Assembly: GCA_963793265.1 (NCBI GenBank)
Contig: CAWBZI010000004.1
Location: 64,001-128,000 of the forward strand
Length of the DNA stretch: 64,000 bases
Reading direction: 5' to 3'
Source of the DNA: an uncultured cyanobacterium
GTDB taxonomy: Bacteria > Cyanobacteriota > Cyanobacteriia > Phormidesmidales > Phormidesmidaceae
A model generated the notes under the pieces. The model made no database searches. It worked only from the letters and a program-made list of their open reading frames with translations, and was not told the origin of the DNA. The position numbers were made by a program, and so were the translations under genes. Positions 14,151 to 30,930 of this stretch are shown piece by piece. The stretch's first letter is position 1, and every line of letters begins with the position of its first letter.

Positions 14151-15050
14151 ATGCCGTTGTTAACCCACCCGAGTGCTGCCATGATCTCTGCTAAAGCTTC
14201 GCCAAATGCATCCGCTTCCGGCCAGTTTACGCTTTCAGATCGATCTGTAAATCGGCTGGGATATGGCGCGATGAGAATCACAGGCGAAGGCGTATGGGGC
14301 GAGCCCGAAGACAGAGCCGAAGCGTTGCGCGTCTTAAAACGTCTGCCAGAACTCGGGATTAACTTTATCGATACGGCAGATAGCTATGGGCCTTTTGTCT
14401 CTGAAGATCTGATTGCTGAAGCACTGTATCCTTACGACGGCCTGTTTATTGCAACTAAAGGTGGGCTCACTCGACATGGGCCTGGCAAGTGGCCAGTTTT
14501 AGGACGGCCTGAGTACTTGCGTCAGTGCGTGCTGATGAGTTTGCGACGGCTCAAGGTAGAACAGTTAGACCTGTGGCAACTGCACCGCATTGACCCCAAG
14601 GTTCCTCAAGATGAACAGTTTGGCGCGATCGCTGACATGTTGAGCGATGGGCTGATTGCTCATGCCGGGCTTAGCCAGGTTTCAATCGAAGAGATAGAAG
14701 CGGCGCGTAAGATATTTCCGGTGACGACCGTGCAAAATCGCTATAACTTAGCCGACAGAGCTGATGAAGCGGTACTTGAGTATTGTGAGCGCGAGGGGAT
14801 AGGGTTTATCCCCTGGTTTCCTTTGGCAGCAGGTGATCTGGCTAATCCAGGCGGTGTGGTAGATAGCATTGCCAAAGCCCATGATGCATCCCCTGGACAG
14901 GTGGCACTCGCTTGGATATTAAAGCGCAGCCCTATGATGTTGCCAATTCCAGGCACTAGCAAAGTTTCGCACTTAGAAGAGAACGTTGCTGCTGCGCAAA
15001 TTGAGCTATCGGACGATGACTTTCAGCAACTTAACGAAGCCGCCCAATAG
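14151..15050 (+). CDS. Aldo/keto reductase
   Basis: 'LGYGAMR', 'DTADSYG', 'ATKGG', 'SLRRL..E.LDL..LH', 'IPGTS...HLEEN'. Confidence 0.93.
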
Positions 15051-15095
15051 GCCGCGCTGTCCGTTGGCCGTCCGACTATTCGATACAATGTATCG

Positions 15096-15323
15096 ATGAA
15101 CTATATTATCTTTTGGATTTTTGGATTCGGCACCCTTTGGGCAGGACTAAAGCTATTTGATGACGAGGTGCTTTTGATTGTGACGATCCTTGTGGGCTCA
15201 GGATTGGTGCTGATGGGCCTGTTCTCTTCTCCTGTGCAGCTACAGGTTGGTGTTGAAGTATTCCTCGTCTTCAATCTGTTCTACATTTGCATGGAGTGTA
15301 TTAGGCGCGGCGATCAACAGTAG
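15096..15323 (+). CDS. Small membrane hypothetical protein
   Basis: 75 aa with about three hydrophobic segments, in operon-like spacing. Confidence 0.65.
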   Translation: MNYIIFWIFGFGTLWAGLKLFDDEVLLIVTILVGSGLVLMGLFSSPVQLQVGVEVFLVFNLFYICMECIRRGDQQ

Positions 15324-15335
15324 GCTTATCAGAGT

Positions 15336-16244
15336 ATGACGCAGCTGCAAAAGAGCGATTTAGCAGAAAAAAACGACCGCTGGGACACCTGGCAAGCATT
15401 CAAGGCCGATCAGCAAGAAATGCTGCTACCTGCGGGCATGGCCGCTCATATTTCGGTAACTATTCGGTACATAGACGAGGGAGAGCCAGCGCAGGGTACT
15501 GTTTTGCTAATGCATGGTATTCCGACCTGGGGATATCTGTATCACGAGATTATTCCGCCTTTGGTGCAAGCAGGCTATCGAGTGCTGGCACCCGATTTTT
15601 TAGGGCATGGCTGGTCGGATAGACGCGATCGCTTCGACCGTTCCTTTCAAGCTCAGGCAAAAATGATTGTCTCCTTCCTATCGGTGCTCGGCTTGAGCGC
15701 AGTAGACGTTGTTGGTCATGATACTGGTGGGGCAGTCGCTTTAATTCTGGCAATTGAACATGCGGCCTGTGTCAACCGTCTTGTGATTACAAACTCAGTC
15801 TGCTACGACCGATTTGACGACGATATGCTTGATTTTGGTCATCCGCTCAGGTGGAAGTCTCGCCCTCTATCAGAGCTGGTTGAGGCGCTAGAAGAGAGTC
15901 TTGATATGGGTATTACAAACAAAGCGAGACTTACCGATGATTTTAAGGAAGGTATTATTGCACCCTGGGCTAGCAAAGAAGGTAAATTAAGCCTGCTTCG
16001 CAACGCCTCTGCGCTCAATGCAAATCAAACAATGGCCCTTGTTGATCGCCACAGCAGTATTTCTGCGCCAACGCTAATTTTATGGGGTATGGACGACCCC
16101 TGGCAAAAGTCGGAAGATGGAAGACAGCTAGCAAGTGAGATTCCGAATGCTATCTTTGAACCCATAGAAAATGCATCTCATTGGATACAACAAGATACGC
16201 CAAAACAGTTTTTTAATGCCGTTCTCGCGTTCTTTAAAAACTAG
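15336..16244 (+). CDS. Alpha/beta hydrolase of the epoxide hydrolase / haloalkane dehalogenase type
   Basis: 'HGIP' oxyanion motif, 'PDFLGHGWS', Asp nucleophile elbow 'GHDTGG', C-terminal 'ASHW'. Confidence 0.85.
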   Translation: MTQLQKSDLAEKNDRWDTWQAFKADQQEMLLPAGMAAHISVTIRYIDEGEPAQGTVLLMHGIPTWGYLYHEIIPPLVQAGYRVLAPDFLGHGWSDRRDRFDRSFQAQAKMIVSFLSVLGLSAVDVVGHDTGGAVALILAIEHAACVNRLVITNSVCYDRFDDDMLDFGHPLRWKSRPLSELVEALEESLDMGITNKARLTDDFKEGIIAPWASKEGKLSLLRNASALNANQTMALVDRHSSISAPTLILWGMDDPWQKSEDGRQLASEIPNAIFEPIENASHWIQQDTPKQFFNAVLAFFKN

Positions 16245-16302
16245 CTGGTAGAGAAATTTGTCACGATTGCTTCAGTTTCATCTACCTTCTCAAAACTTGT
16301 TT

Positions 16303-19245
16303 TCACAAAACCTGGTCTATTTGCTGTGCCAGCTCAAACACATGAGGCGGGCGAAACATGCTCATATGACCACCCGAGTTAGTGATTACTTTGATATCGC
16401 CTTGAACATAGCGCGACCAACCTAAATCATTCTCAACAACGACTTCGTTTTCAGGTGTCTCAAGTGCTCGAACGACCAAAAGATTATCAGGATAGTGGGA
16501 TAGCGTGTATTGCTGGGCGAGTTTGCTATGGTGGCGACGAGCGGTTTGGGTTAGCGTACTGCTTGGACGCTTGGGCTGTTCTTGAAAGCTGCTATGTTTT
16601 GCTAGAAACCTGCTAATTTTGCCTTGTTCATACTGGTAGCGCTTGACTATTTTGGCTTTCATGTAGCTAAGGCCGTCTTCGCGAAACTCTTGCCAGTAAG
16701 CTTGATATCTGCTGGCGGTAGATTCTACGTACCGGGCTCCTGGGGCGTGGTGGTCAAACAATATTAGCTGCGCTACAGATTCGTTCTGCTTAATAAGCTG
16801 TTGCGCGATTTCGTAAGATAGTAATCCTCCGAAGGAAGCGCCGCCTAAGTAGTAAGGGCCGTGAGGCTGGATGAGCTGAATTTGTTCGATGTAGTATTTG
16901 GCGGTTGCTTCAATGCTGTTGAATGTGGGGCTCTCTGCATCTGCAAAGGCTGATGTGACGCCGTAGATAGAGCGATGGGTTTTTAGGTGCTGAACGAGTG
17001 GCTGATAGAAGAGAACGCTTGACCCTAATGCATGAATAAGGAATAGTGGTTGATTTTTAGCGCTATCTGTTTGTTTTTGATCAGGTCTTAGCGGGATAAT
17101 CAGGGAGGGTGTGACCGTTGTTGTGTTGGGTGCTTTGGAATCAGGGCTTGTAGCGTTTTTGTTGGATTCTATGGTGAGTAGCTGTGCGGCGATCGCGCGA
17201 ATGGTCGGCGTTTGAAAAAGCTGGTTGAGTGGAAATGCTAGGCCGGTTTGGTGTTCGAGTGCGGCAAATGCCTGCTGGGCTAGGATTGAGGTGCCGCCTA
17301 AGTCGAAGAAACTATCGTCGATGCCGATAGGACGAACGCCGAGACAATCTTCCCAAATCTGTACGAGATTTTGTTCTAGTGGCGTATGCGGTTCGGCAAA
17401 GGCGTTGGTGAGGACATCGGCAGATTTTGGTCGAGAAAGAATAGGAGAGGGCGTAGTAGCGTTGGATAAAAGCCAGTAAGACTGATGGTCGAAGGCGTAG
17501 GTTGGCAGATCTACAAATTGGCAACAGGTTGAGCTGTAGAGCTTTGACCAGTCAATTTTTACGCCTTTTTCCCACTGCTGAACAAGATGCTGGAGGGCAG
17601 TGATTCTCTCTGTAGGCGCAGCCCCTTCTCTGGGATAGGTTTCGGATGAGAGGGTCTGACGCTGGGCGCGCCGGGTGATTGTTTGGCCGATGGGGTCTGA
17701 AGACTTGTAGGCGTGTTCGAGCTGCTGTTGGAGGTCTTGAAAAGAGGTGGTGACGATTGCCAGGCGACGAGAGAAGTGCGATCGCCGCCTACTTGCTGTG
17801 TAGCAAACATCCCTTAAACCCCAGCCTTCTTGCGCGCCTAGAACCGTTTTATAGCGGTGGATAAGCCCTCTCAATGCCTGCTCGCTTTTGGCAGAGAGCA
17901 CTAATATCTCTGGCTGACTATGGCGCGATGTATCGGCTTCAATATTGGCGCTATCTAGTCCTGATAGCACCATATGAACGTTGGTACCGCCTAATCCAAA
18001 TCCGCTGATGCTGGCGATCGCACCGCCATTTTCACCATCATCCTCATCGCCAGCCCTCTGAGGCCAATCCATCAGCGCTGAAGGCAATTTGAGCTTTGCT
18101 TTGTGCCAATCAATGTAATCGCTAGGCGTTTGGCAGTGTAGATGGGGCGGAATTTGCTGGTGGTAAAGCGAAAGCGCCACTTTCATCAGCCCTGCCATAC
18201 CAGAGGCCACTTCTGCGTTGCCTATGTTTGTTTTCACAGAGCCCACAGCACATGGATTATCATCATCACGCGCTGCTGAGAGCACTTCACCGAGCGTATT
18301 GAGTTCTAGCGCATCGCCTAGCGGCGTACTAGACCCGTGAGCTTCGACGTATTGCACCCGGTTAGGCGCAATGTCTGCCTGCTGATAGGCCCTTTGGATG
18401 AGATCTTTTTGCGCTTTGGGATTTGGCCCGGTGAGTCCGTTGCCCCTGCCGTTGTGGTTGAGGGCGCTGCCTTGAATAGTGGCATAGATGCGATCGCTAT
18501 CTTCTACCGCTACCTCTAGTGGCTTAAGAATCACGACGCCTGCCCCTTCACCGCGAACGTAGCCGTCAGCGTTCGTGTCAAAAATTCGACAGCGATCGGA
18601 CGTGGAGAGAAATCCTGTTCCTTTTAATCTTTTAGTGGTTGTATCCGACAAAATCAGGTTGATGCCACAGACGATAGCCATGGTGGATTCGCCGCAGCGG
18701 ATACTTTGAACGGCTTGATGTATGGCGACTAATGACGAAGAGCAAGCTGTATTAATTGCAACGCTTGGCCCCTGAAGATTTAGCTGATATGAGAGTCGAT
18801 TAGCGGCAATACAAGGGTTAACGCTTGTCGCGCCATAGCTATCATCGTTAGCTTTTGCAAAAGACTTTGTTATCTGGTCGTAGCGGCTGTCTACGATGGC
18901 TGTAAAAACGCCTGTACGACTTCCGGCTAAATGGGCAGGTACCTGTCCGGCATCTTCTAGTGCTTCCCAGGCAATCTCTAGCAGTAGGCGCTGCTGAGGA
19001 TCTAGCGAGTTTGCCTCTTCGGGTGTGATTCCGAAGAAATGAGGATCGAACTGGTCGATATCTGATAAAAAACCGCCTACCGTCTCGTCTGTGTCTGCTG
19101 GAAAAAGTGCCTGTCGCTCAGGAGAGGGCAAGGCAATGGCGTCTTTTCCCTGCTTTAGCATCTGCCAAAATTCGTCTGGTGACTTAGCGCCCGGAAAGCG
19201 ACAGCCAAGACCAATGATTGCAACTGAGGTTTGAGATTTTGACAT
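16303..19245 (-). CDS. AT-less type I PKS-like protein: KS - flanking subdomain - carrier (PCP-like) - thioesterase
   Basis: KS 'DPQQRLLLE', 'TACSSS', 'EAHGSST', 'KTNIGN'; 'LPTYAF..SYW' with no AT GHSxG motif; carrier 'FFDLGGTSIL'; TE 'GASFGG' and 'GHMSM'. Confidence 0.9.
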   Translation of the reverse strand: MSKSQTSVAIIGLGCRFPGAKSPDEFWQMLKQGKDAIALPSPERQALFPADTDETVGGFLSDIDQFDPHFFGITPEEANSLDPQQRLLLEIAWEALEDAGQVPAHLAGSRTGVFTAIVDSRYDQITKSFAKANDDSYGATSVNPCIAANRLSYQLNLQGPSVAINTACSSSLVAIHQAVQSIRCGESTMAIVCGINLILSDTTTKRLKGTGFLSTSDRCRIFDTNADGYVRGEGAGVVILKPLEVAVEDSDRIYATIQGSALNHNGRGNGLTGPNPKAQKDLIQRAYQQADIAPNRVQYVEAHGSSTPLGDALELNTLGEVLSAARDDDNPCAVGSVKTNIGNAEVASGMAGLMKVALSLYHQQIPPHLHCQTPSDYIDWHKAKLKLPSALMDWPQRAGDEDDGENGGAIASISGFGLGGTNVHMVLSGLDSANIEADTSRHSQPEILVLSAKSEQALRGLIHRYKTVLGAQEGWGLRDVCYTASRRRSHFSRRLAIVTTSFQDLQQQLEHAYKSSDPIGQTITRRAQRQTLSSETYPREGAAPTERITALQHLVQQWEKGVKIDWSKLYSSTCCQFVDLPTYAFDHQSYWLLSNATTPSPILSRPKSADVLTNAFAEPHTPLEQNLVQIWEDCLGVRPIGIDDSFFDLGGTSILAQQAFAALEHQTGLAFPLNQLFQTPTIRAIAAQLLTIESNKNATSPDSKAPNTTTVTPSLIIPLRPDQKQTDSAKNQPLFLIHALGSSVLFYQPLVQHLKTHRSIYGVTSAFADAESPTFNSIEATAKYYIEQIQLIQPHGPYYLGGASFGGLLSYEIAQQLIKQNESVAQLILFDHHAPGARYVESTASRYQAYWQEFREDGLSYMKAKIVKRYQYEQGKISRFLAKHSSFQEQPKRPSSTLTQTARRHHSKLAQQYTLSHYPDNLLVVRALETPENEVVVENDLGWSRYVQGDIKVITNSGGHMSMFRPPHVFELAQQIDQVL

Positions 19246-19277
19246 GATGGCGTTTGAGTAAGGCTGGCTGTGATGGG

Positions 19278-20366
19278 CTAGTTGATAGGGGCAGGTGAGT
19301 TGCCTAATGCCGCAAGAATTTTGCGATCGCCGCTATACGATCGCCGTCCGTGGGCTACCAAGAAATTGTCGAGCACTAGCACGTCGCCTTTTTGCCAGGA
19401 GAATACGGTAGCTTCGCTATCGGCGCAGTCGCAGAGGGTCTGAATTTCTTCGGGTGAAATGGGTGAGCCGTCGCCATAGGTGGCATTCATTGGCATGTTT
19501 TCTTCACCGATCATGTTGCACAATAGCTGTCCTGCTTTACCGTAGGCTCCGTAATGAAATATTTGGGGCTGACAGAACCACACAGTTTCGCCTGTGATGG
19601 GGTGCTGGGTGATCGCAGGCAAAACCTGATGGGTTACTAGGGTGCCGTTCTCTTTCCAGACGTATTGAATATCGCTTTGGTTTAAGAACGCTTCTACTTC
19701 GGTGCGATCGCTGGTTTCAAACTGTTGCTGCCAGGGCTTTCCTAGTAGCTCAAATGGTTTCTGCTCACCATCGACCATGTTTTTTGTATAGCGAATTTTC
19801 CTATCTAAAAAGCGCTGACGCAAATCTGCTGGAATCTTTTGATAGATAGCGGCGGTACTGGCAATAGGCGTTTGGCCCTCTGTTGCTGGCGGCGTTTCGC
19901 AAAAGAACACTATTTTGTGAGGTGCCCAGCAGGTGTAAGACAGCTCAGTATGAAGCGGGATGGGTTTGGAGGCTACGTAGTTTGTAGAAGTGTAGATTAG
20001 ATTATGAACCCGACTGCGAGGAGAACTTCCTTGCGTATAAGGCACACATTTTATTTGAAGGGCGATGACGACCTGCTCAAACATTTCAGCAGTTTGAACG
20101 CCGCACCCTCGCAAAAGAATACCGCCGTGCTTTAGTAAAGTCTCTTCGATCCAGCGTCTATGTTCTGTTATCCATGTCAGCAAAAGCTTGAATGCGTCAT
20201 CCTCAGACTCCGGCATGGTTAGCACTAGCGGGAGCAAGCAATCTGCTGCAAACAGAGATGCCCTGAGGGGTTGCGGGCAGTGCATAGGGGCAATCGTTAT
20301 TGGCATGTCTAGTTCTTTACAATATTTGGCTGCTGATAAAACCGGCTCGAAACGCTGCCTTATCAA
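19278..20366 (-). CDS. TauD/TfdA-family Fe(II)/2-oxoglutarate dioxygenase, SyrP-like
   Basis: 'HGGILLRG', 'PLHTELSY' (HxE), 'WQKGDVLVLDN...HGR'; alternative ATG at 20306. Confidence 0.88.
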   Translation of the reverse strand: MIRQRFEPVLSAAKYCKELDMPITIAPMHCPQPLRASLFAADCLLPLVLTMPESEDDAFKLLLTWITEHRRWIEETLLKHGGILLRGCGVQTAEMFEQVVIALQIKCVPYTQGSSPRSRVHNLIYTSTNYVASKPIPLHTELSYTCWAPHKIVFFCETPPATEGQTPIASTAAIYQKIPADLRQRFLDRKIRYTKNMVDGEQKPFELLGKPWQQQFETSDRTEVEAFLNQSDIQYVWKENGTLVTHQVLPAITQHPITGETVWFCQPQIFHYGAYGKAGQLLCNMIGEENMPMNATYGDGSPISPEEIQTLCDCADSEATVFSWQKGDVLVLDNFLVAHGRRSYSGDRKILAALGNSPAPIN

Positions 20367-21604
20367 ATTGTTTTAAAAGTAATGGGTAAAGACTTTAATC
20401 CTCTGAGGGTGATGCTCTCTCGCCAGTCTAGATGATCCGTATTTAAGGAAATGTCGCAGCAGCGCTCTACCAAAGACTGAATCGCGATTTGCCCTTCAAT
20501 GCGAGCGAGGGCCGCGCCGAGGCAGTAGTGCATTCCGCCCCCAAACGGCAGATTGTTGAGCTGGCGCGTCCAGTCTAGCTGGTCAGGATTTTTGCAGTAG
20601 TCAGGATCGCGGTTGGCCGCGCCCAAACAAACAATTACTTTCTCTCCTTTCTTGATGGTTCTATTGCCTAGCTCAATATCTTCGCTAGCGAGCCTGGCTA
20701 GTACCTGTACTGGGCTGTTATAGCGCAATAGTTCTTCTACCACCGGGCCGATTTTATCAGGATTATTTCTAACAAATTCAATCTCGTCAGGCTGCTGTAA
20801 TAGCGCCAGTATGCCATTGCCAATCAGGCTTTTGGTCGTTTCTTGCCCAACGATAAACAGCATGATACAAAAGCCAAGAATTTCATCCTGGCTCAACTTT
20901 TGGCCCTGATCACGAGCCTGGATCAACTGACTAATCAGTCCGTCTGTCAGCTCAGCTTCTTGCTGCGCAATCAAGTCGCGCAAGTATTCTCTCGCTTCGA
21001 TAGCGACCTGATTTTGCCTTTGGTAGCCTTCTAACGACATAGGCTGATCGAATACAAAGAAGAGATCGTTCGACCATTCGCTGAGCTTGTGAGCGTCGCA
21101 ATCAGGCACACCGATGATGCGAGCGATTACCATGGCAGGCAGTGGATTAGCCAGATCGCTCATCACGTCCATTTGCCCCTGGCTGGTGGCTTGCGAAATG
21201 AGATCGTCTACTAGCGCCTGAATGCTAGGTCGTAGTGCTTCGATGCTGCTGAAAGAGAATGCTTTGCTGACTAGCGATCGCAGCCGCTTATGATCGTCCC
21301 CTTCTTTAAAAAATAACCATTTGCCGATGGTTTGAGAGAGTGGATTTAAGTTGTCGGGTTCAAGAAAGCGATTTTTTTGCTGCAAGCGCTCTGGTAAATC
21401 ATCTACAGCAAATCGAGGATCTTTTAGGACGAACTGAGCGTCTTCATATCGGGTGATAATCCATGCGCTGAGAAAGCTCCAATGCACCGGGTCTTCTCTG
21501 CGTAAGCGCTCGTACGTAGGGTAGGGGTTGGCGTGAAACTCTGGTGAAAAGGGGTTGAACTTTACGGGAGTGGAAAGCACGGGTAGTAGGCTTGTATTGA
21601 ACAA
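20363..21604 (-). CDS. Cytochrome P450
   Basis: I-helix 'GQETT', 'EELLR' (ExxR), heme motif 'FGGGMHYCLG'. Confidence 0.96.
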   Translation of the reverse strand: MFNTSLLPVLSTPVKFNPFSPEFHANPYPTYERLRREDPVHWSFLSAWIITRYEDAQFVLKDPRFAVDDLPERLQQKNRFLEPDNLNPLSQTIGKWLFFKEGDDHKRLRSLVSKAFSFSSIEALRPSIQALVDDLISQATSQGQMDVMSDLANPLPAMVIARIIGVPDCDAHKLSEWSNDLFFVFDQPMSLEGYQRQNQVAIEAREYLRDLIAQQEAELTDGLISQLIQARDQGQKLSQDEILGFCIMLFIVGQETTKSLIGNGILALLQQPDEIEFVRNNPDKIGPVVEELLRYNSPVQVLARLASEDIELGNRTIKKGEKVIVCLGAANRDPDYCKNPDQLDWTRQLNNLPFGGGMHYCLGAALARIEGQIAIQSLVERCCDISLNTDHLDWRESITLRGLKSLPITFKTI

Positions 21605-21652
21605 ACGGGTTAATGACTTAGATTTAATAGCTTAGATAAGGGCTAAGGGCGA

Positions 21653-23752
21653 TTACTGCGCGGATGTAGCTCGGTTGAATAAGTACTGACTGAGCACTTC
21701 AATGTTGGGATATTCCCAGAACAAAGTGGGCTCTAGGTGGCAGCCTAACCAGTCTGCTAATTCGCCAGTTAAACTCATTGATACCGACGAGTCGAGTGCG
21801 TATTCAGAGAATGAGACTTCAATGTCGATATCGTCTGGATTTTGCTGAGTTGATTCAGCAACTTTGTCAATTAGCCAGTCCTGTATTACAAACTCGGTGA
21901 TTTCTAGCCTCTCGCTGTTTTTGACGGCTGGCGCGTCTGTTGCAGATTTTATGGACGCTTGAGATTCGACTGGCAGTATAGTTGGTAGTTCGTCTATAGG
22001 TGCTGTAGTCCCGACCCACTCACCTACTGTTTGTAGTGCGCCTGTTGTGAAGGCTGTTTTGCACGCCTGGCGCTGGACTTTGCCGCTGGATGTTTTGAGC
22101 AGGCTGGCGGTTTTTATGAGCGCGATCGCATACACCTGAATGTCGTGCTGCTCGGCTACGGCCTGCCGAATCGCACTGGCGATCTGATCGCAATCAAAAT
22201 TACGTAGGTGAGTACGTTCAATTTCTTGAACGATGACCAGACGTTCTGCGCCCTCGACTTCTACCGAAAAAGCGGCCCCGCACTCCGGCCTTAGCGCTTC
22301 GTGACTCTGCGTGACTGTTAGCTCAATATCTTGCGGGTAGTGGTTGCGGCCCCAAATAATGATGGCGTCTTTGATGCGTCCGGTGACAAATAGCTCGCTG
22401 CTTCTAAGAAATCCTAAATCTCCGGTGCGAAGGAAAGGCCCCTGTGGCGGTACGTCTGCTTCGTGACTGGCTAAATAGGCACCAAACGTTTCTTCGGTTC
22501 GTTCTGGCTGCTGCCAGTATCCTTGCGATATGCCAGGGCCAGCGACCCAGATTTCTCCGACCTGATCAGGCTTACAGCGCGTTTTCTGCTGTGGATCGAC
22601 AATGGCGACGCGTGTGTTTAAATGCGATCGCCCGCATCCTACTAAAACGCGGGTGGCTGATTTTGATAGCCCATCAGCTTCGACAATTCGATGACGCGCC
22701 AGTTCATCGGCGCTAACTTCAATGAAAACGGGGGGCTCATCTACGCGCCCGCCAGTGACCATTAGCGTTGCTTCTGCCATGCCGTAGCAGGGATAGAAGG
22801 CGTTGGGGCTAAAGCCACAGCAGGCGAACTTGGCTGCAAACGCATCCAAGGTTGGCTGGCGGACGGGCTCAGAGCCGCTGTAGGCACTTTCCCAGCGGCT
22901 CAGGTCGAGCTGGGCCATCGCTTCGGGTGCGATTTTTTGAGTGCATAGCTCGTAGCCAAGGTTAGGGCCGCCGCAGTGGGTCGCTTGGTAGTCGGAAATA
23001 GCCTGTAGCCATCGTATAGGCTTTTGGATGAAGCTGCCTGGCGACATGAGCACGCCTAAGAAGCCTGTGTATAAAGGCTGGATAATGCCGTCGATGAGGC
23101 CCATGTCGTGAAAGCTGGGTAGCCAGGTGACCGAGACGCTTTTGGGTGAGAGGGCGAAGGCGGTTTGAATGTATTTTGAGTTGTGTGAAAGGTTGTCGTG
23201 GCTGACAATGACGCCTTTGGGTGAGCCGGTGGAGCCCGAGGTGTATTGGATGAAGGCAAGCGGCTGGCTGTTCGGGGTTTGCCAGGTTTCGATTAGGCTG
23301 GTGCGCGCTGCGGTGGGGATGCTGGCGACTGTATCGGTGGCTATCCACGCTAGCTTTGAGAGGGGCGAGTCAGTGGGAATTTGCTTGTTTATTAGCGGCT
23401 GTACGCTGCTGTTGGTGAGGGCAACTTTGGCCTGAGAATTGGCTGTGATCGCTTCTAACCGAGTAGTTTTTTGACTGCGCCGGGGCAGCGCTGCTGGCAC
23501 CGCAATGACACCTGCATACAGACAGCCGAAGAAGGCTGCAATGAAGTCTAACCCTTGAGGATAGAGGAGCAGCGCTCGGTCGCCGCAGTCTACTGTGGCC
23601 TGCAATTGAGCAGCGATCGCTCTGGCTTGCTGGTCGAGTTCTGAGTAGGTGATGTGAATGGCATCTGCTTCACCATCAATCAGAAAGGTATAGGCTTTTT
23701 GGTTGGGCTGATGTTGCGATCGCCAATGAAGCACGTCTGATAGGCTGTCCAA
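21653..23752 (-). CDS. Fatty acyl-AMP ligase fused to an acyl carrier protein (starter module)
   Basis: 'QYTSGSTG.PKGV', 'WLP.FHDMGLI', 'YGMAEATL', 'RTGDLG', 'GRNHYPQDIE', 'KTSSGK'; C-terminal ACP 'LDS'; true start may be upstream (see findings). Confidence 0.94.
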   Translation of the reverse strand: MDSLSDVLHWRSQHQPNQKAYTFLIDGEADAIHITYSELDQQARAIAAQLQATVDCGDRALLLYPQGLDFIAAFFGCLYAGVIAVPAALPRRSQKTTRLEAITANSQAKVALTNSSVQPLINKQIPTDSPLSKLAWIATDTVASIPTAARTSLIETWQTPNSQPLAFIQYTSGSTGSPKGVIVSHDNLSHNSKYIQTAFALSPKSVSVTWLPSFHDMGLIDGIIQPLYTGFLGVLMSPGSFIQKPIRWLQAISDYQATHCGGPNLGYELCTQKIAPEAMAQLDLSRWESAYSGSEPVRQPTLDAFAAKFACCGFSPNAFYPCYGMAEATLMVTGGRVDEPPVFIEVSADELARHRIVEADGLSKSATRVLVGCGRSHLNTRVAIVDPQQKTRCKPDQVGEIWVAGPGISQGYWQQPERTEETFGAYLASHEADVPPQGPFLRTGDLGFLRSSELFVTGRIKDAIIIWGRNHYPQDIELTVTQSHEALRPECGAAFSVEVEGAERLVIVQEIERTHLRNFDCDQIASAIRQAVAEQHDIQVYAIALIKTASLLKTSSGKVQRQACKTAFTTGALQTVGEWVGTTAPIDELPTILPVESQASIKSATDAPAVKNSERLEITEFVIQDWLIDKVAESTQQNPDDIDIEVSFSEYALDSSVSMSLTGELADWLGCHLEPTLFWEYPNIEVLSQYLFNRATSAQ

Positions 23753-23990
23753 ATTTCTGCTCAGACATATTTTCGGACAGCACTGATATCGAAGGCGAAG
23801 CGTTCATATGTCTAAGCTATTTCTTTAGATTGTTTTATAAGGTTTCCATCATTTCTTGATGAGTAAGACCGTATTAAGCCCTAACAATTGCGCGATCGCC
23901 TATCAGCTTGCGTACATTCACGAGATCGCTAATCACGTATCATTTGGCTTGTTAGGTGGTTTGTTAGGACTGCGATCATAGCCATAACAA

Positions 23991-24023
23991 AAAAGCCTTA
24001 TCTACAAATTAGATAAGGCTTTT
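23991..24023. terminator. Intrinsic terminator, probably of the 24103-24450 gene
   Basis: Perfect 14-bp stem AAAAGCCTTATCTA / TAGATAAGGCTTTT with 5-nt loop. Confidence 0.8.
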
Positions 24024-24601: not shown

Positions 24602-26110
24602 ATGGTGAGTAGCGTAGCGCAGCAGAAAGTAGTAGTGATTGGAGCCGGGATTGGTGGCTTAACGGCGGCGGCGCTGCTAGCGCATCGGGGCTACGGTGTG
24701 AAGGTGTTTGACCAGGCAATTGTGCCGGGGGGCTGTGCGTCTACGTTTAAGCGGCGCGGATTTACGTTTGATGTGGGGGCAACTCAGGTGGCTGGATTAG
24801 AACCTGGGGGAATTCATTACCAGATTTTTGAGGAGCTGGGGATTGATCTGCCGCCTGCGAGCCATTGTGATCCGGCCTGTGCGGTGTTTTTGCCGGGGGA
24901 GAATGAACCGATTAGCGTGTGGCGCGATCCGGCGAAGTGGAAGGCAGAAAGGGAACGGCAGTTTCCGGGGAGTGCGCCTTTTTGGAATTTTATGAAGGCG
25001 CTCTTTGACTATAGCTGGCGGTTTCAACAGCGTGATCCGGTGCTGCCACCGCGTAGCCTGTGGGATATTTGGCAGTTGTCCGCGGCGGTGCGGCCCGATA
25101 CGCTATTGACGGTGCCGTTTACGTTTTCGACGGTGGGTGAGATTTTGCGAGGGTATGAGCTGTACGATAATCGGCGGCTACGGACGTTTTTGGATATGCA
25201 GCTAAAGCTGTATTCGCAGACGACGGCGGATAGGACGGCGGTGCTATATGCGGCAACTGCTTTGGGGGTGTCGCAGGCTCCGCACGGGCTGTACCACTTG
25301 AAGGGGAGTATGCAGGTTTTAAGCGATCGCCTCCACCAGTCCCTAGAAGCAAACGGCGGCGAACTCCACATGCGCCATACTGCCGAGGCCATTGAAATTG
25401 AAAACGGCAGACCTACTCAAGTGAAGATCGCTAGCCGAAAAGGAGAAAGCTGGATAGAAGAAGCCGATCATGTTGTCGCTAACGTTACAGTGCAAAATCT
25501 GGTTCGCTTGGCGAAAGACAATAGAATGAAGGGCTACGAAAAAAGAGTGGGTAAGCTTGAGCCTTCTTCGGGTGCCTTTGTAATTTACTTAGGGGTAGAA
25601 CAAGCTGCAATTCCTGAGAACTGCCCGCCCCATCTACAGTTTATGTATGATTATGACGGGCCAATTGCCGAAAATAATTCTCTTTTTGTCTCGGTAAGCC
25701 GCCCAGGAGACGGACGTGCGCCGGAAGGTAAAGCGACGGTGATTGCCTCTTCTTTTACAGAAGTGCAGCAGTGGTACGACTGTGATGAGGCGGCATATAA
25801 GGTGATGAAAGAGAGATATACACAAGAGGCAATCTCCCGATTAAAGAACTACTTCGATCTGCGGCCTGAGCATTTGGTACATGTGGAGGCTGCGACCCCG
25901 AGGAGCTTTGAGACATTTACGGGGCGCGATCGCGGCATCGTCGGCGGCATTGGTCAAAGTGTACCGACCTTCGGCCCATTTGGCTTTGCGACCCGTACGC
26001 CAATCAAAAATCTGTGGCTAGTCGGTGACAGTACTCACCCAGGAGAAGGCACAGCGGGCGTAAGCTATTCGGCCATGACAGCAGTACGACAGATAGAAGC
26101 GGGTGCTTGA
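24602..26110 (+). CDS. crtD: Carotenoid C-3',4' desaturase
   Basis: FAD motif 'VIGAGIGG', 'GGCASTFKR.GFTFDVGATQVAG', 'GDSTHPGEGTAGVS', typical of cyanobacterial CrtD. Confidence 0.88.
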   Translation: MVSSVAQQKVVVIGAGIGGLTAAALLAHRGYGVKVFDQAIVPGGCASTFKRRGFTFDVGATQVAGLEPGGIHYQIFEELGIDLPPASHCDPACAVFLPGENEPISVWRDPAKWKAERERQFPGSAPFWNFMKALFDYSWRFQQRDPVLPPRSLWDIWQLSAAVRPDTLLTVPFTFSTVGEILRGYELYDNRRLRTFLDMQLKLYSQTTADRTAVLYAATALGVSQAPHGLYHLKGSMQVLSDRLHQSLEANGGELHMRHTAEAIEIENGRPTQVKIASRKGESWIEEADHVVANVTVQNLVRLAKDNRMKGYEKRVGKLEPSSGAFVIYLGVEQAAIPENCPPHLQFMYDYDGPIAENNSLFVSVSRPGDGRAPEGKATVIASSFTEVQQWYDCDEAAYKVMKERYTQEAISRLKNYFDLRPEHLVHVEAATPRSFETFTGRDRGIVGGIGQSVPTFGPFGFATRTPIKNLWLVGDSTHPGEGTAGVSYSAMTAVRQIEAGA

Positions 26111-27069
26111 GACTGAAGGGCTACCGAGTTGCTGGGGTATTGAATATTCCAGACTAGGCCAACGTACCTTAAGGCGTTGATGATATTCCAGCTTGGATCG
26201 ATCTGTTCAGGATGCAAACTGAACTTAGCGGCATGAGGAAACGCCTTGTGGTTGCTCTGCCAGCATTCACCCACGGTTAGTAGACCTGTAATCCGGCTAA
26301 GCATAGGTCTTTGCGATTTGCGCGGCTTTTTATAGCCTTTCTTTTTATAGCCTTTCTTTTTATAGCTATTGTGGAGCGGGTGATGCGTTAGGTACTCAAC
26401 GAGCCACTGTCCGGTTGTGCTAACCGCGATGCGCATATAAATTCCCCAAAACACCCAGCTCCAGCCGCCAAAGTAGTAAAAGGCTAGTGCCCAAGGTAGC
26501 TGCTGGAGCATCCAGGTTCGTTCTAGCAGGGTATAGAATCCGTTGTCAGCAATCCTGGATTCGTGGCGAAAAATTGGAGGATAGTGGAGCTGAATACTAC
26601 AGTGCAGGTTCCAAATCCAATCGACTAGGATATTGCGGCGGTTGTTGAAGTAGGGGTGGCAGTTGGGCTGACGCTGTGCCCAGTCGCGCAGGTCGTGCCT
26701 TTCGATGAGGGAGAATGGCCCGCCGAGGCCTGCTAAGACGCCTAGATAGACGAGGCTGTTTTCTAGCCACTGGTGACACTCAAAGCTGTTGTGAACGAGG
26801 CGACGGTGAATGCCGACAGAGTATCCTGCGCAGAGGGTAGTGAAGGTGGTGACAACGAAGAGTAGAAAAGCGTCCCAATAAAATGTTTGGTAGCCACCGA
26901 AAATAGCGCCTGCGTAGATGAAGCTTATCCACAGGGACTTGGTAGGCGACCAGTACACCTGGCCGAAAATAGCACTAGAGTGACCTTTGTTAGAATCTAC
27001 TCGGCCTACGGCTGGATCTCCCGTTGCTGGGTTGCCCGTTTTTAGGTCAATTGAATGGGGGCTAATCAT
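26065..27069 (-). CDS. Membrane fatty-acid desaturase-like protein (delta-9 type) with a degenerate third His box
   Basis: 'HRRLVH', 'HDLRDWAQRQ', 'GECWQSNHKAFP', 'QIDP.W'. Confidence 0.8.
   Translation of the reverse strand: MISPHSIDLKTGNPATGDPAVGRVDSNKGHSSAIFGQVYWSPTKSLWISFIYAGAIFGGYQTFYWDAFLLFVVTTFTTLCAGYSVGIHRRLVHNSFECHQWLENSLVYLGVLAGLGGPFSLIERHDLRDWAQRQPNCHPYFNNRRNILVDWIWNLHCSIQLHYPPIFRHESRIADNGFYTLLERTWMLQQLPWALAFYYFGGWSWVFWGIYMRIAVSTTGQWLVEYLTHHPLHNSYKKKGYKKKGYKKPRKSQRPMLSRITGLLTVGECWQSNHKAFPHAAKFSLHPEQIDPSWNIINALRYVGLVWNIQYPSNSVALQSQAPASICRTAVMAE
26326..26366. repeat. 15-bp tandem repeat (about 2.7 copies) encoding YKKKG repeats in the desaturase-like gene
   Basis: CTTTTTATAGCCTTT x2 plus a partial copy. 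Confidence 0.9.
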
Positions 27070-28802: not shown

Positions 28803-30237
28803 ATGAGTACCTTTCTAAGTGTTGATACGGCTGCGGCTGAGCTTGGTATTAGCCCCCAGCGTGTGAGAACGCTGTGCCGAACCAATGAGTTGAAGGCCAA
28901 GAAAACAGGAAATTCGTGGCTGATAGAACCTCAAAGTCTCCATCGCTACGGATTGAAGACTGCTCACATTGTTGCTGAGAATCACGCTGCCTATCGCTAT
29001 ACGAAAACAGCACCAAGTCAGAGGCCGGTCGCATTAAGCTTTTTCTCTGGTGCGATGGGATTGGATTTGGGTGTAGAAAGGGCAGGCTTTGACGTCAGAT
29101 TAGCCTGCGAAGTTGATAAGTTTTGTAGGCAAACTATTGCGCTTAATAAGCCAGATACAGCTCTTTTAGGAGATATTAACGACTATCAACCTGAAGATAT
29201 TTTGCAGGCGGCTGGGCTAAGTGAGCGCGACGATATTGACTTAGTAATGGGCGGCCCACCCTGTCAAGCGTTTAGTACGGCGGGTAAGCGTAAAGGGTTT
29301 CATGATGATCGGGGTAATATTTTTTTGAAGTATGTGGATTTGGCGATTGCGCTTAATCCCAAGTTCATTGTTATTGAGAATGTTAGGGGTCTGTTGTCTT
29401 GCCCTATGACTCACCGCCCGCACGATCAAAGAGGAGAAGGGTTTCCTGACTTATCAGAAGATGAATTGAAAGGCGGGGCGCTCAATTTTGTTTTAAGTAA
29501 GCTGAAGCGAGCGAACTATGCTTACTCTTTTAATTTGTACAACGCGGCTAACTACGGGACACCGCAGATCCGCGAGAGAGTTGTAATCGTCTGCTCTAGG
29601 GATGGTGATCGTCCGCCTTTTATTCCACCTACGCACTCAGAACATGGTGATTTTGGTCTGCCTAAATGGAAAACGCTAAGGCAGACAATTTCGGATATAA
29701 CAGAGCATACTCATCTGAGTTTTCCTGAGAAGCGATTGAAATACTATAGGATGCTCAAACCTGGTCAGAATTGGAAGAACTTGCCAGAAGATTTACAAAA
29801 AGAGGCGATGGGAAAGTCTTATTATTCAGGCGGTGGAAAGACGGGATTTTTACGACGCTTGGCTTGGAACAGACCTTCTCCTACGCTTACTCACTCATCC
29901 GGCGATGCCTGCTACTGATTTGGCGCACCCTACCGAGAATCGTCCGCTTTCCATTCAAGAATATAAACGTATTCAAGAGTTTCCGCATAGCTGGCAGCTA
30001 GCGGGGCCGTTGGTTCAGCAGTATAAGCAGGTAGGTAATGCAGTCCCTTCTAGCTTTGGTTACGCAATTGGTAAGACGATTAAGGCTCTGATTGATTCGG
30101 AGGACATTCCTATTTTTGAGAATTTTAAGTATTCGAGATATAAGAAGACTTCTCAATTGCAGTGGGAGACTGAGTTTGGAAAGATAGTAGAGGCAAAGAG
30201 AAGTGAAGGTTCACAGACTGAGCTACTGCTGATTTGA
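28803..30237 (+). CDS. C5 cytosine DNA methyltransferase with N-terminal HTH, frameshifted near 29885-29892 (two ORFs)
   Basis: Motif I 'FFSGAMG', IV 'GPPCQ', VI 'ENV', VIII 'QIRERV' in 28803-29918; motifs IX/X 'EYKRIQEFP', 'YKQVGNAV' in 29833-30237. Confidence 0.9.
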
Positions 30238-30930
30238 TGTGCTTTTTTCTTGTCGTAGGTAGGCTTCTACGAAGGCTAAAAATGCCTGTTCTGACAGTCC
30301 ATATCCTTGTATGAGCGGAGGCAAATTGTCCCAGTTTGTCTGAGGCTTTTTAGAAAAGGAACGGAACCACTTTTGAATAGTAGTGCCTTGTCTGATAGCG
30401 CTACTTGAAGAATTTTCGGAATTGTCCCTATTTTTAATTTGCAGTGCTAGCCATTGGCCATCTGTATCGCGGCTGATGAAATCTATTGCTTTTACAAAGT
30501 CTCCGCAGCACCAATACCAGTGATTCGGTCGCAGCACTGAGTCTAAATATCTCTCTAGCAGAGCGCCAATACAGTTCTCTGCGCACATTGAATGCTGATG
30601 TTCTAGTTTTATTCTTTCACACTGTTCTACAGAGTAGTCACAAGCGGCTCTCATGACTATGCTGACTGCTTCGTCTGGGATTGTTCCTGGTGCTTTTGGA
30701 AAGTCTGAACGTTTATAGGCGCTGAAGTATTTGCTGGCTAGAAGGTTCAGCCCTTCTGGCGTATTAGTGCTAGGCCGGTTTTTTCTTGATCGCCAAGATA
30801 AGGCATTTGGGTTGTCGTATAAAAAATGGCAGACGTTAACAAAGGATTCAGCTAGACCTGCCTCGCTTTCAGTATCGGCAGTGAATGTAAGGGCAATCTG
30901 ATTTGCTAACTTTCGATTAAATGCTGCCAT
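30223..30930 (-). CDS. Type II restriction endonuclease, SinI family
   Basis: 'HQHSMCAENCIGALLERYL', 'KAIDF', 'LQIKNRDNSENSSSSAIR', 'WFR' motifs; convergent with a C5 MTase. Confidence 0.82.
   Translation of the reverse strand: MAAFNRKLANQIALTFTADTESEAGLAESFVNVCHFLYDNPNALSWRSRKNRPSTNTPEGLNLLASKYFSAYKRSDFPKAPGTIPDEAVSIVMRAACDYSVEQCERIKLEHQHSMCAENCIGALLERYLDSVLRPNHWYWCCGDFVKAIDFISRDTDGQWLALQIKNRDNSENSSSSAIRQGTTIQKWFRSFSKKPQTNWDNLPPLIQGYGLSEQAFLAFVEAYLRQEKSTSNQQ

Follow-up and report, generated by a model that had tools for sequence, protein, structure and literature searches.

The closest described counterparts of the four-gene operon treated here, which lies in a 64,000-nucleotide stretch of an uncultured cyanobacterium of the Phormidesmidaceae (hereafter the window; assembly GCA_963793265.1, contig CAWBZI010000004.1, positions 64,001 to 128,000), are three cyanobacterial pathways. 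In the chlorosphaerolactylate cluster cly (ClyA-F; PMC7923214), an FAAL (fatty acyl-AMP ligase) loads an acyl carrier protein (ACP), the tethered fatty acid is tailored, and ClyE, a ketosynthase (KS) that lacks a His and is combined with a dead acyltransferase (AT0), has been proposed to relay the C12 chain from the FAAL-loaded ACP to the carrier (T) domain of a nonribosomal peptide synthetase (NRPS), before a thioesterase (TE) releases the small lipid. This cluster also encodes CylC-type halogenases and a depsipeptide module with condensation (C), adenylation (A), and ketoreductase (KR) domains (C-A-KR-T-TE), which adds lactate. In the starter of the puwainaphycins and minutissamides, the FAAL-ACP PuwI is followed by the cytochrome P450 PuwJ. 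Both have been tied to hydroxy and oxo fatty acyl variants (PMC9016887); for the oxygenation of fatty acyl chains, a review from 2023 cites PuwJ and the aranazole oxygenases as the cases (PMC10088813). PuwI and PuwJ feed elongating polyketide synthase (PKS) modules and a long NRPS. The fischerazole cluster fsh (PMC13548996) is similar by description, with an FAAL, a PKS with inactive AT and a KS minus a His (FshG/H, likewise proposed as a KS0/AT0 relay), and a P450 proposed for C-8 hydroxylation of the acyl chain; unlike the operon treated here, it also includes NRPS modules, halogenases, and a rearranging methyltransferase.

Compared with cly, the operon in the window has a P450 and a TauD-family Fe(II)/2-oxoglutarate (2OG) dioxygenase for tailoring, a single protein combines FAAL with ACP, the AT has been lost, the TE follows straight behind KS0-T, and there is no second building block. 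The operon encodes no C, A, or KR domain. A CylC-type halogenase is absent from the operon, too. In contrast to the puwainaphycin system, neither elongation machinery of the PuwB/PuwE type nor a peptide-forming NRPS follows the starter genes in the window. The best reading of these comparisons is a chlorosphaerolactylate-type logic from which the peptide step has been removed. On the evidence presented below, it is reasonably probable that the operon makes a small oxidised fatty acid, which would be released as a hydroxy acid or lactone, by means of a lipopeptide starter cassette without the peptide part.

Other candidate precedents fit less well. Olefin synthases (Ols) have the layout KS-AT-KR-ACP-sulfotransferase-TE behind a FAAL-ACP, and the operon lacks AT, KR, and sulfotransferase. 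The desmamide cluster was rejected as a precedent for FAAL-ACP/P450 coupling, because the main text of the paper does not contain the term 'P450' and the starter is hexanoate (PMC9315949). A full-text literature search, which left most subscription papers outside its scope, found no description of the four-gene layout, in agreement with the preliminary description of this DNA, which had recognised no known cluster of the same architecture. Among the six papers retrieved for KS-ACP-TE-type strings, none was cyanobacterial as judged by title and start of the abstract.

Organization of the operon

The four genes are co-oriented and tightly packed in the order FAAL-ACP, P450, TauD, and KS-T-TE, with 48 nt between the first two and 32 nt between the last two, and with P450 and TauD overlapping by 4 nt (Table 1). 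Their Pfam domains are, gene by gene, AMP-binding plus PP-binding, p450, TauD, and KS plus PP-binding plus thioesterase, and no match was obtained in the operon for Acyl_transf_1, KR, dehydratase (DH), enoylreductase (ER), Condensation, or an amino-acid A domain. Two statements of the preliminary description, namely the adjacency of FAAL-ACP, two oxygenases, and a KS-carrier-TE protein, and the lack of AT, A, C, KR/DH/ER, and halogenase, are thus confirmed by open reading frame (ORF) positions and domain content. All residues required for activity are present in the operon proteins, except for one KS histidine.

Table 1. Features of the operon and the surrounding island (positions in the window).
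Feature	Position	Strand	Remarks
FAAL-ACP didomain	21653..23807	-	in-frame ORF of the window 23752-21653, 699 aa from TTG
FAAL domain	~23752-22016	-	
ACP domain	~21880-21680	-	attachment motif LDSS
Cytochrome P450	20363..21604	-	heme Cys361, ExxR, I-helix GQETT
TauD-family Fe(II)/2OG dioxygenase	19278..20366	-	335-aa form begins at ATG 20285
KS0-T-TE (KS0 as predicted)	16303..19245	-	KS ~19227-17959; NRPS-type T ~17367-17182; NRPS-type TE ~17052-16330
Inserted island	14151..24000	.	operon, aldo-keto reductase, 75-aa ORF, and alpha/beta hydrolase; boundaries approximate
Aldo-keto reductase	14151-15050		within island
Asp-nucleophile alpha/beta hydrolase	15336-16244	+	convergent on operon; motifs HGxP, GHDTGG

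For the first gene, NCBIfam listed one large NRPS/PKS model first and then FAAL families, all under curated cut-offs. The FAAL has a dedicated ACP bearing the attachment Ser, as is characteristic of FAAL-initiated cyanobacterial lipid clusters. The start proposed in the preliminary description, ATG 23807, is out of the FAAL frame in the window owing to an extra base at 23757. This single base is missing in the contigs of all three covering metagenome runs (X1, X2, and X4, from two studies), which contain no further indel nearby, and its absence brings ATG 23807 into the frame of the FAAL. In those near-identical populations, the gene therefore truly begins at 23807 and is intact, and the extra base of the window is, judged by this comparison, an assembly error or a strain-specific (private) frameshift. 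An in-frame TTG at 23752 is a possible start that would retain the complete FAAL domain in the window.

A KS without AT and decarboxylation histidine

The KS retains C168, H303, and K338, but the second catalytic His, which was not noticed to be missing in the preliminary description, is replaced by Asn (N343; KTNIGN instead of KxNxGH), and the AT has been deleted from the protein. Retention of the catalytic Cys together with loss of a catalytic His and an inactive or absent AT is also the hallmark of relays of the ClyE/FshH type. A midpoint-rooted FastTree phylogeny of 51 KS domains places the window KS in a clade (support 0.999) made up solely of AT-less or AT-remnant proteins. Within its 15-member subclade, the second His is Asn in 13 and Ser in two members, and the position of the first is occupied by His, Asn, or Gln. 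The decay of the AT can be followed from GHSxG in elongating outgroups through GYGxG remnants to the complete deletion in the window. Because the window KS has lost its second His and the AT across its clade is either inactivated or gone, the predicted function of the KS is most likely that of a non-elongating relay (KS0). Among PDB entries, NRPS termination modules come closest to the T-TE end, which carries the attachment Ser (S653) and the TE triad (S804, D831, H960). The closest named full-length KS-T-TE relative (P0003, source label Phormidesmis sp.) shares 50% identity. A loop of the KS (18036-18050) is polymorphic, as the window and conspecific contigs differ there by an in-frame indel of 12 nt.

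Alternatively, the Cys-His-Asn KS may perform chemistry of its own: one elongation with FabD-loaded malonyl, which would yield a beta-keto acid, or the non-decarboxylative formation of a C-C or C-O bond such as cyclisation or esterification of a hydroxy-acyl chain. The near fixation of Asn in the subclade does not look random, the genome has a stand-alone AT of the FabD type (a single 294-aa ORF of FabD size), and at one locus, G211, the cluster adjoins plsX-fabH-fabD. Furthermore, the type I-like KS of TAS1, which also has a Cys-His-Asn triad, performs a Dieckmann cyclisation (PMC4640141). That KS is C-terminal and releases its product by this reaction, however, whereas the window KS stands at the N-terminus ahead of T and TE and has a triad that varies among orthologues. 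In the close orthologues G024 and P0005, the first His is changed to Asn or Gln and the Asn to Ser, a drift more in keeping with a relay than with a tuned triad. With an NRPS-type T as acceptor, a separate intact TE available for release, and fabD adjacency at only 1 of 12 loci, catalysis of this kind by the KS is improbable.

Two oxygenases with a probable carrier-bound substrate

The P450 has an intact heme Cys, ExxR motif, and I-helix acid-alcohol pair, and its nearest relatives occur in acyl-carrier contexts, as expected for a carrier-dependent enzyme. The closest solved structures are BioI (3EJB, E 2e-84) and PksS (4YZR). Both of these enzymes use ACP-bound acyl chains as substrates. The P450 also shares 51% identity with that of G091, a cluster with the gene order FAAL-ACP, P450, KS-AT-DH-methyltransferase-ER-KR-ACP, FAAL, ACP, halogenase-like protein, KS-AT-aminotransferase-monooxygenase-C-A-T, and NRPS. 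We take this order to be the puwainaphycin (puw) layout, and the G091 enzyme presumably is a PuwJ orthologue. Probably, the window P450 is an acyl-ACP hydroxylase, and its identity to the G091 enzyme makes a mid-chain position the best guess. BioI itself cleaves its acyl chain for biotin synthesis. If the window enzyme likewise cut the ACP-bound chain mid-way, the product would be a short omega-oxo or dicarboxylic acid, which could be further modified by the TauD enzyme. The rank of BioI as top solved relative and the presence of an aldo-keto reductase in the same island would be in line with this scenario, which nevertheless appears quite unlikely: the similarity to the puw-type P450 favours a non-cleaving hydroxylase, the reductase occurs at none of 10 homologous loci checked, and evidence of chain cleavage was not found at the window locus.

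In the TauD enzyme, the triad H112-x-E114...H312 and R321 are invariant across 17 of 17 aligned homologues (335-aa numbering). It thus shares the TauD fold, the HxD/E...H facial triad, and the 2OG-binding Arg with the SyrP-type beta-hydroxylases, a class known for aminoacyl substrates. The term 'SyrP-like' used in the preliminary description holds in this respect, although the cognate amino-acid A-T module is absent in the window and the enzyme belongs to a distinct group (45-55% identity) within the wider family of NRPS-associated hydroxylases. In most of the best profile matches, the domain forms the C-terminal end of a large multidomain protein; homologues of 38-41% identity lie, where mapped, in NRPS clusters. 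A fold search with the predicted model retrieved At3g21360 as best match and otherwise only generic TauD-fold enzymes; a scan of genome contigs yielded five loci, all distant. An amino-acid A domain is lacking at three of the four loci that carry this TauD (window, G217, and G1094) and present at G483. Therefore, an acyl chain is the likely substrate.

Proposed pathway

The domains, catalytic residues, conservation, and clade structure are best explained by the following steps. The FAAL would adenylate a fatty acid and load it onto its own ACP, where the BioI/PuwJ-like P450 would hydroxylate the chain, probably at a mid-chain position. The KS, which lacks an AT and the decarboxylation His, would then pass the acyl group via Cys168 to the NRPS-type T without elongation. 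A second oxidation by TauD would follow, plausibly on the T-bound chain near the thioester, as relatives of this enzyme act on substrates bound to peptidyl carrier proteins. Finally, the Ser-Asp-His TE would hydrolyse the chain or lactonise it onto the installed hydroxyl group. A more far-reaching version, which must be regarded as doubtful, ascribes a purpose to the relay: KS0 would shift the fatty acyl group from the ACP to the NRPS-type carrier so that the SyrP-like dioxygenase can oxidise a lipid beside the thioester, and this, together with P450 and TE, would give rise to a strained or epoxy lactone. In that case, a widespread and so far undescribed family of oxidised-lipid lactones would exist in cyanobacteria, with this operon as its smallest member, and other members would close the ring by Cys-nucleophile TEs or a PaaK-like adenylating enzyme.

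Distribution of the cassette

With the P450 as marker (E<=1e-110 in the own family and in family f30, E<=1e-120 in three further families), matches were obtained in 5/172 other genomes of the own family, 50/389 genomes of f30, and 2/144, 7/89, and 0/28 genomes of the further families, the last being the family of G071. Loci were retrieved from 5/5 (own family), 18/50 (f30), 1/2, and 6/7 of the P450-positive genomes. A metagenome scan with the P450 alignment placed one of 80 kept loci (L080) in the family, and a search of plasmids returned five P450s, all below 50% identity. At most f30 loci, FAAL-ACP and P450 are located ahead of an elongating PKS or PKS-NRPS. A subset of the P450s forms a clade (support 1.0) that mirrors the KS clade. 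Twelve of its loci were classified; a further one, G926, stops at a contig edge and was left out. Ten are stand-alone and end in T-TE (window, G024, G217, G211, G1094, G1068, G440, G269, G202, and L080), and two, G007 and G483, are NRPS-coupled. Homologues are therefore not confined to larger clusters, a possibility raised in the preliminary description that would have made the operon a remnant. The nine other stand-alone loci have unrelated flanking genes. As the KS tree splits into the two sister lineages that also emerge from the P450 tree, the cassette has been inherited as a unit.

The TauD gene is optional and was found at 4 of the 12 loci (window, G217, G1094, and G483); none of five TauD-less genomes tested contains a close orthologue elsewhere (best matches <=41%). 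Of the doubly oxidised fatty-acid product initially envisaged, the thiotemplated oxidised-lipid pathway, which is self-contained in several genomes, is supported, whereas the second oxidation would apply to this subset only.

In G007 and G483, the cassette serves as the starter for NRPSs, and the genome of the window has other NRPS-type genes, so that the operon could also supply an oxidised acyl starter to a distant NRPS, with the TE merely proof-reading. The TE is fused in cis behind T and has its full triad, however, and the island containing the operon moves as one unit that includes no NRPS genes, which makes such a role very unlikely.

Relatives of the cassette show further variations. 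A gene of the sister lineage that could not be assigned at first was considered as a CylC halogenase, which was ruled out, since its product is PaaK-like. This divergent adenylating enzyme without Pfam match is encoded between P450 and KS0-T-TE in four sister clusters (L160:10906-12372, L164:7550-9025, L161, and L060:8499-9509). The TEs of G1094 and G440 lack the GxSxG motif, which reads FCGD, suggesting that the ligase takes over release. Cys-nucleophile TEs (GxCxG) were observed in L062:1999-8121, L023:369-4550, L163:12403-15876, P0019, and P0010. At G483, a KS0-T-C-A-T-TE protein beside TauD and P450 marks a candidate cluster for a small acyl-amino-acid lactone; its A-domain code presumably is Ile-like. 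Another recurring cluster in families f30 and f27 (L076-L078, L069, and L165) combines FAAL-ACP, two P450s, a class V aminotransferase, a fatty-acid or Asp/Asn hydroxylase, and a KS..C hybrid.

Genomic island and evolutionary history

Of 10 congeneric genomes checked, nine have crtD directly behind band7, with or without a 115-aa ORF and without any of the island genes in between. Therefore, the region from 14.1 to 24.0 kb of the window is an insert. The three-gene version of G024 is located at a different genomic site. GC content gives no mark of the island in the window, and scans for promoters and terminators gave results at chance level. The hydrolase and the aldo-keto reductase were rejected as core genes, as they are found at 0/10 homologous loci. 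By sequence, the hydrolase is closest to haloalkane dehalogenases and could open an epoxide or lactone.

The KS and T-TE trees are discordant, with KS0 proteins of one clade bearing TEs that are not related to each other. In P0019, a G007-type KS is linked to a T-TE that is 72% identical to the NRPS terminus of G007 (on a 4.9-kb contig, where misassembly is possible). Both observations point to a repeated loss of peptide modules and suggest that T-TE ends have repeatedly been grafted from NRPS termini. Direct descent from the KS-T-C-A-T-TE protein of G483 was ruled out, because the T-TE at the end of that protein shares only 26% identity and uses a Cys nucleophile. The lineage of the window (P0002-P0005), in contrast, retains the KS-T-TE fusion (overall identity 49-53%) with every release residue, and its KS and T-TE trees agree. 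Between the window and G024, pN is 0.18-0.32 and pS 0.70-0.87 across FAAL, P450, KS, T, and TE. Among 40 listed of 91 conspecific variants, 33 remained after removal of six outside genes and one in an indel, comprising 23 synonymous and 10 non-synonymous changes.

Several observations weigh against the proposed pathway. The exact four-gene set of the window occurs in no other retrieved genome: G024 lacks TauD, G217 has a second P450, and G1094 has a PaaK-like adenylating enzyme, which is also an accessory at G440, G1068, and G211. Relatives show decay, as G1068 and G440 are in pieces and the G211 ligase is truncated, and the FAAL start of the window is frameshifted as assembled. Many KS members of the sister lineage retain Cys-His-Lys-His, so that elongation with malonyl supplied in trans may occur there. 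Finally, the TauD orthologue of G483 adjoins an NRPS module, and the ancestral substrate of this enzyme could therefore be an amino acid. The frameshift and the fragmented loci, together with the NRPS-type T-TE end and the likeness of P0019 to a module excision, might even indicate that the operon is the decaying remnant of a lipopeptide cluster, which has lost its NRPS modules and makes nothing any more. Little probability is assigned to such decay. The P0002-P0005 lineage keeps a complete release end, the proteins are conserved while synonymous sites are saturated, and the conspecific contigs are in frame. As the window lineage is old and under purifying selection, it is no recent remnant. 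The operon is real and likely functional.

Other genes of the window and genome

A desaturase-like ORF at 26065-27069 (-) has degenerate His boxes and a weak DesA-family match, and is conserved close to crtD in 5 of 10 congeners. At 28803-30930, a C5 DNA methyltransferase with an N-terminal helix-turn-helix faces a SinI-type restriction endonuclease, forming an ordinary type II restriction-modification pair. Elsewhere in the same genome (G000:C6, L170:5667-14437), a second FAAL/ACP cluster includes a 468-aa protein similar to halogenases of the CylC type, as well as a KS that retains an AT remnant. A 468-aa probe (weak AurF match), which we take to be CylC-like, matched only C6 and C1 of this genome.

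Significance

The interpretation given in the preliminary description is partly supported, as the logic of FAAL loading, carrier-bound tailoring, and KS0 relay has already been described for the chlorosphaerolactylates and fischerazoles. Precedents exist for all modules. A FAAL-ACP/P450/KS0-T-TE family that has no peptide part appears undescribed, as does a SyrP-like enzyme that lacks an amino-acid partner. The cassette recurs as a peptide-free offshoot of lipopeptide pathways already known. It defines an orphan family whose clusters are very small (3-5 genes, ~7.5 kb) and come from at least three cyanobacterial families. Such clusters are easy to express whole and should expose reactions in which a PuwJ-like P450 and a SyrP-like dioxygenase oxidise unactivated fatty acyl carbons site-selectively. 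As the role of PuwJ rests on correlation in the sources cited here, they also offer a tractable test of this enzyme class. Moreover, they represent a natural case of the shrinkage of a lipopeptide assembly line, through decay of the AT, conversion of the KS to a relay, and repeated grafting of NRPS T-TE ends.

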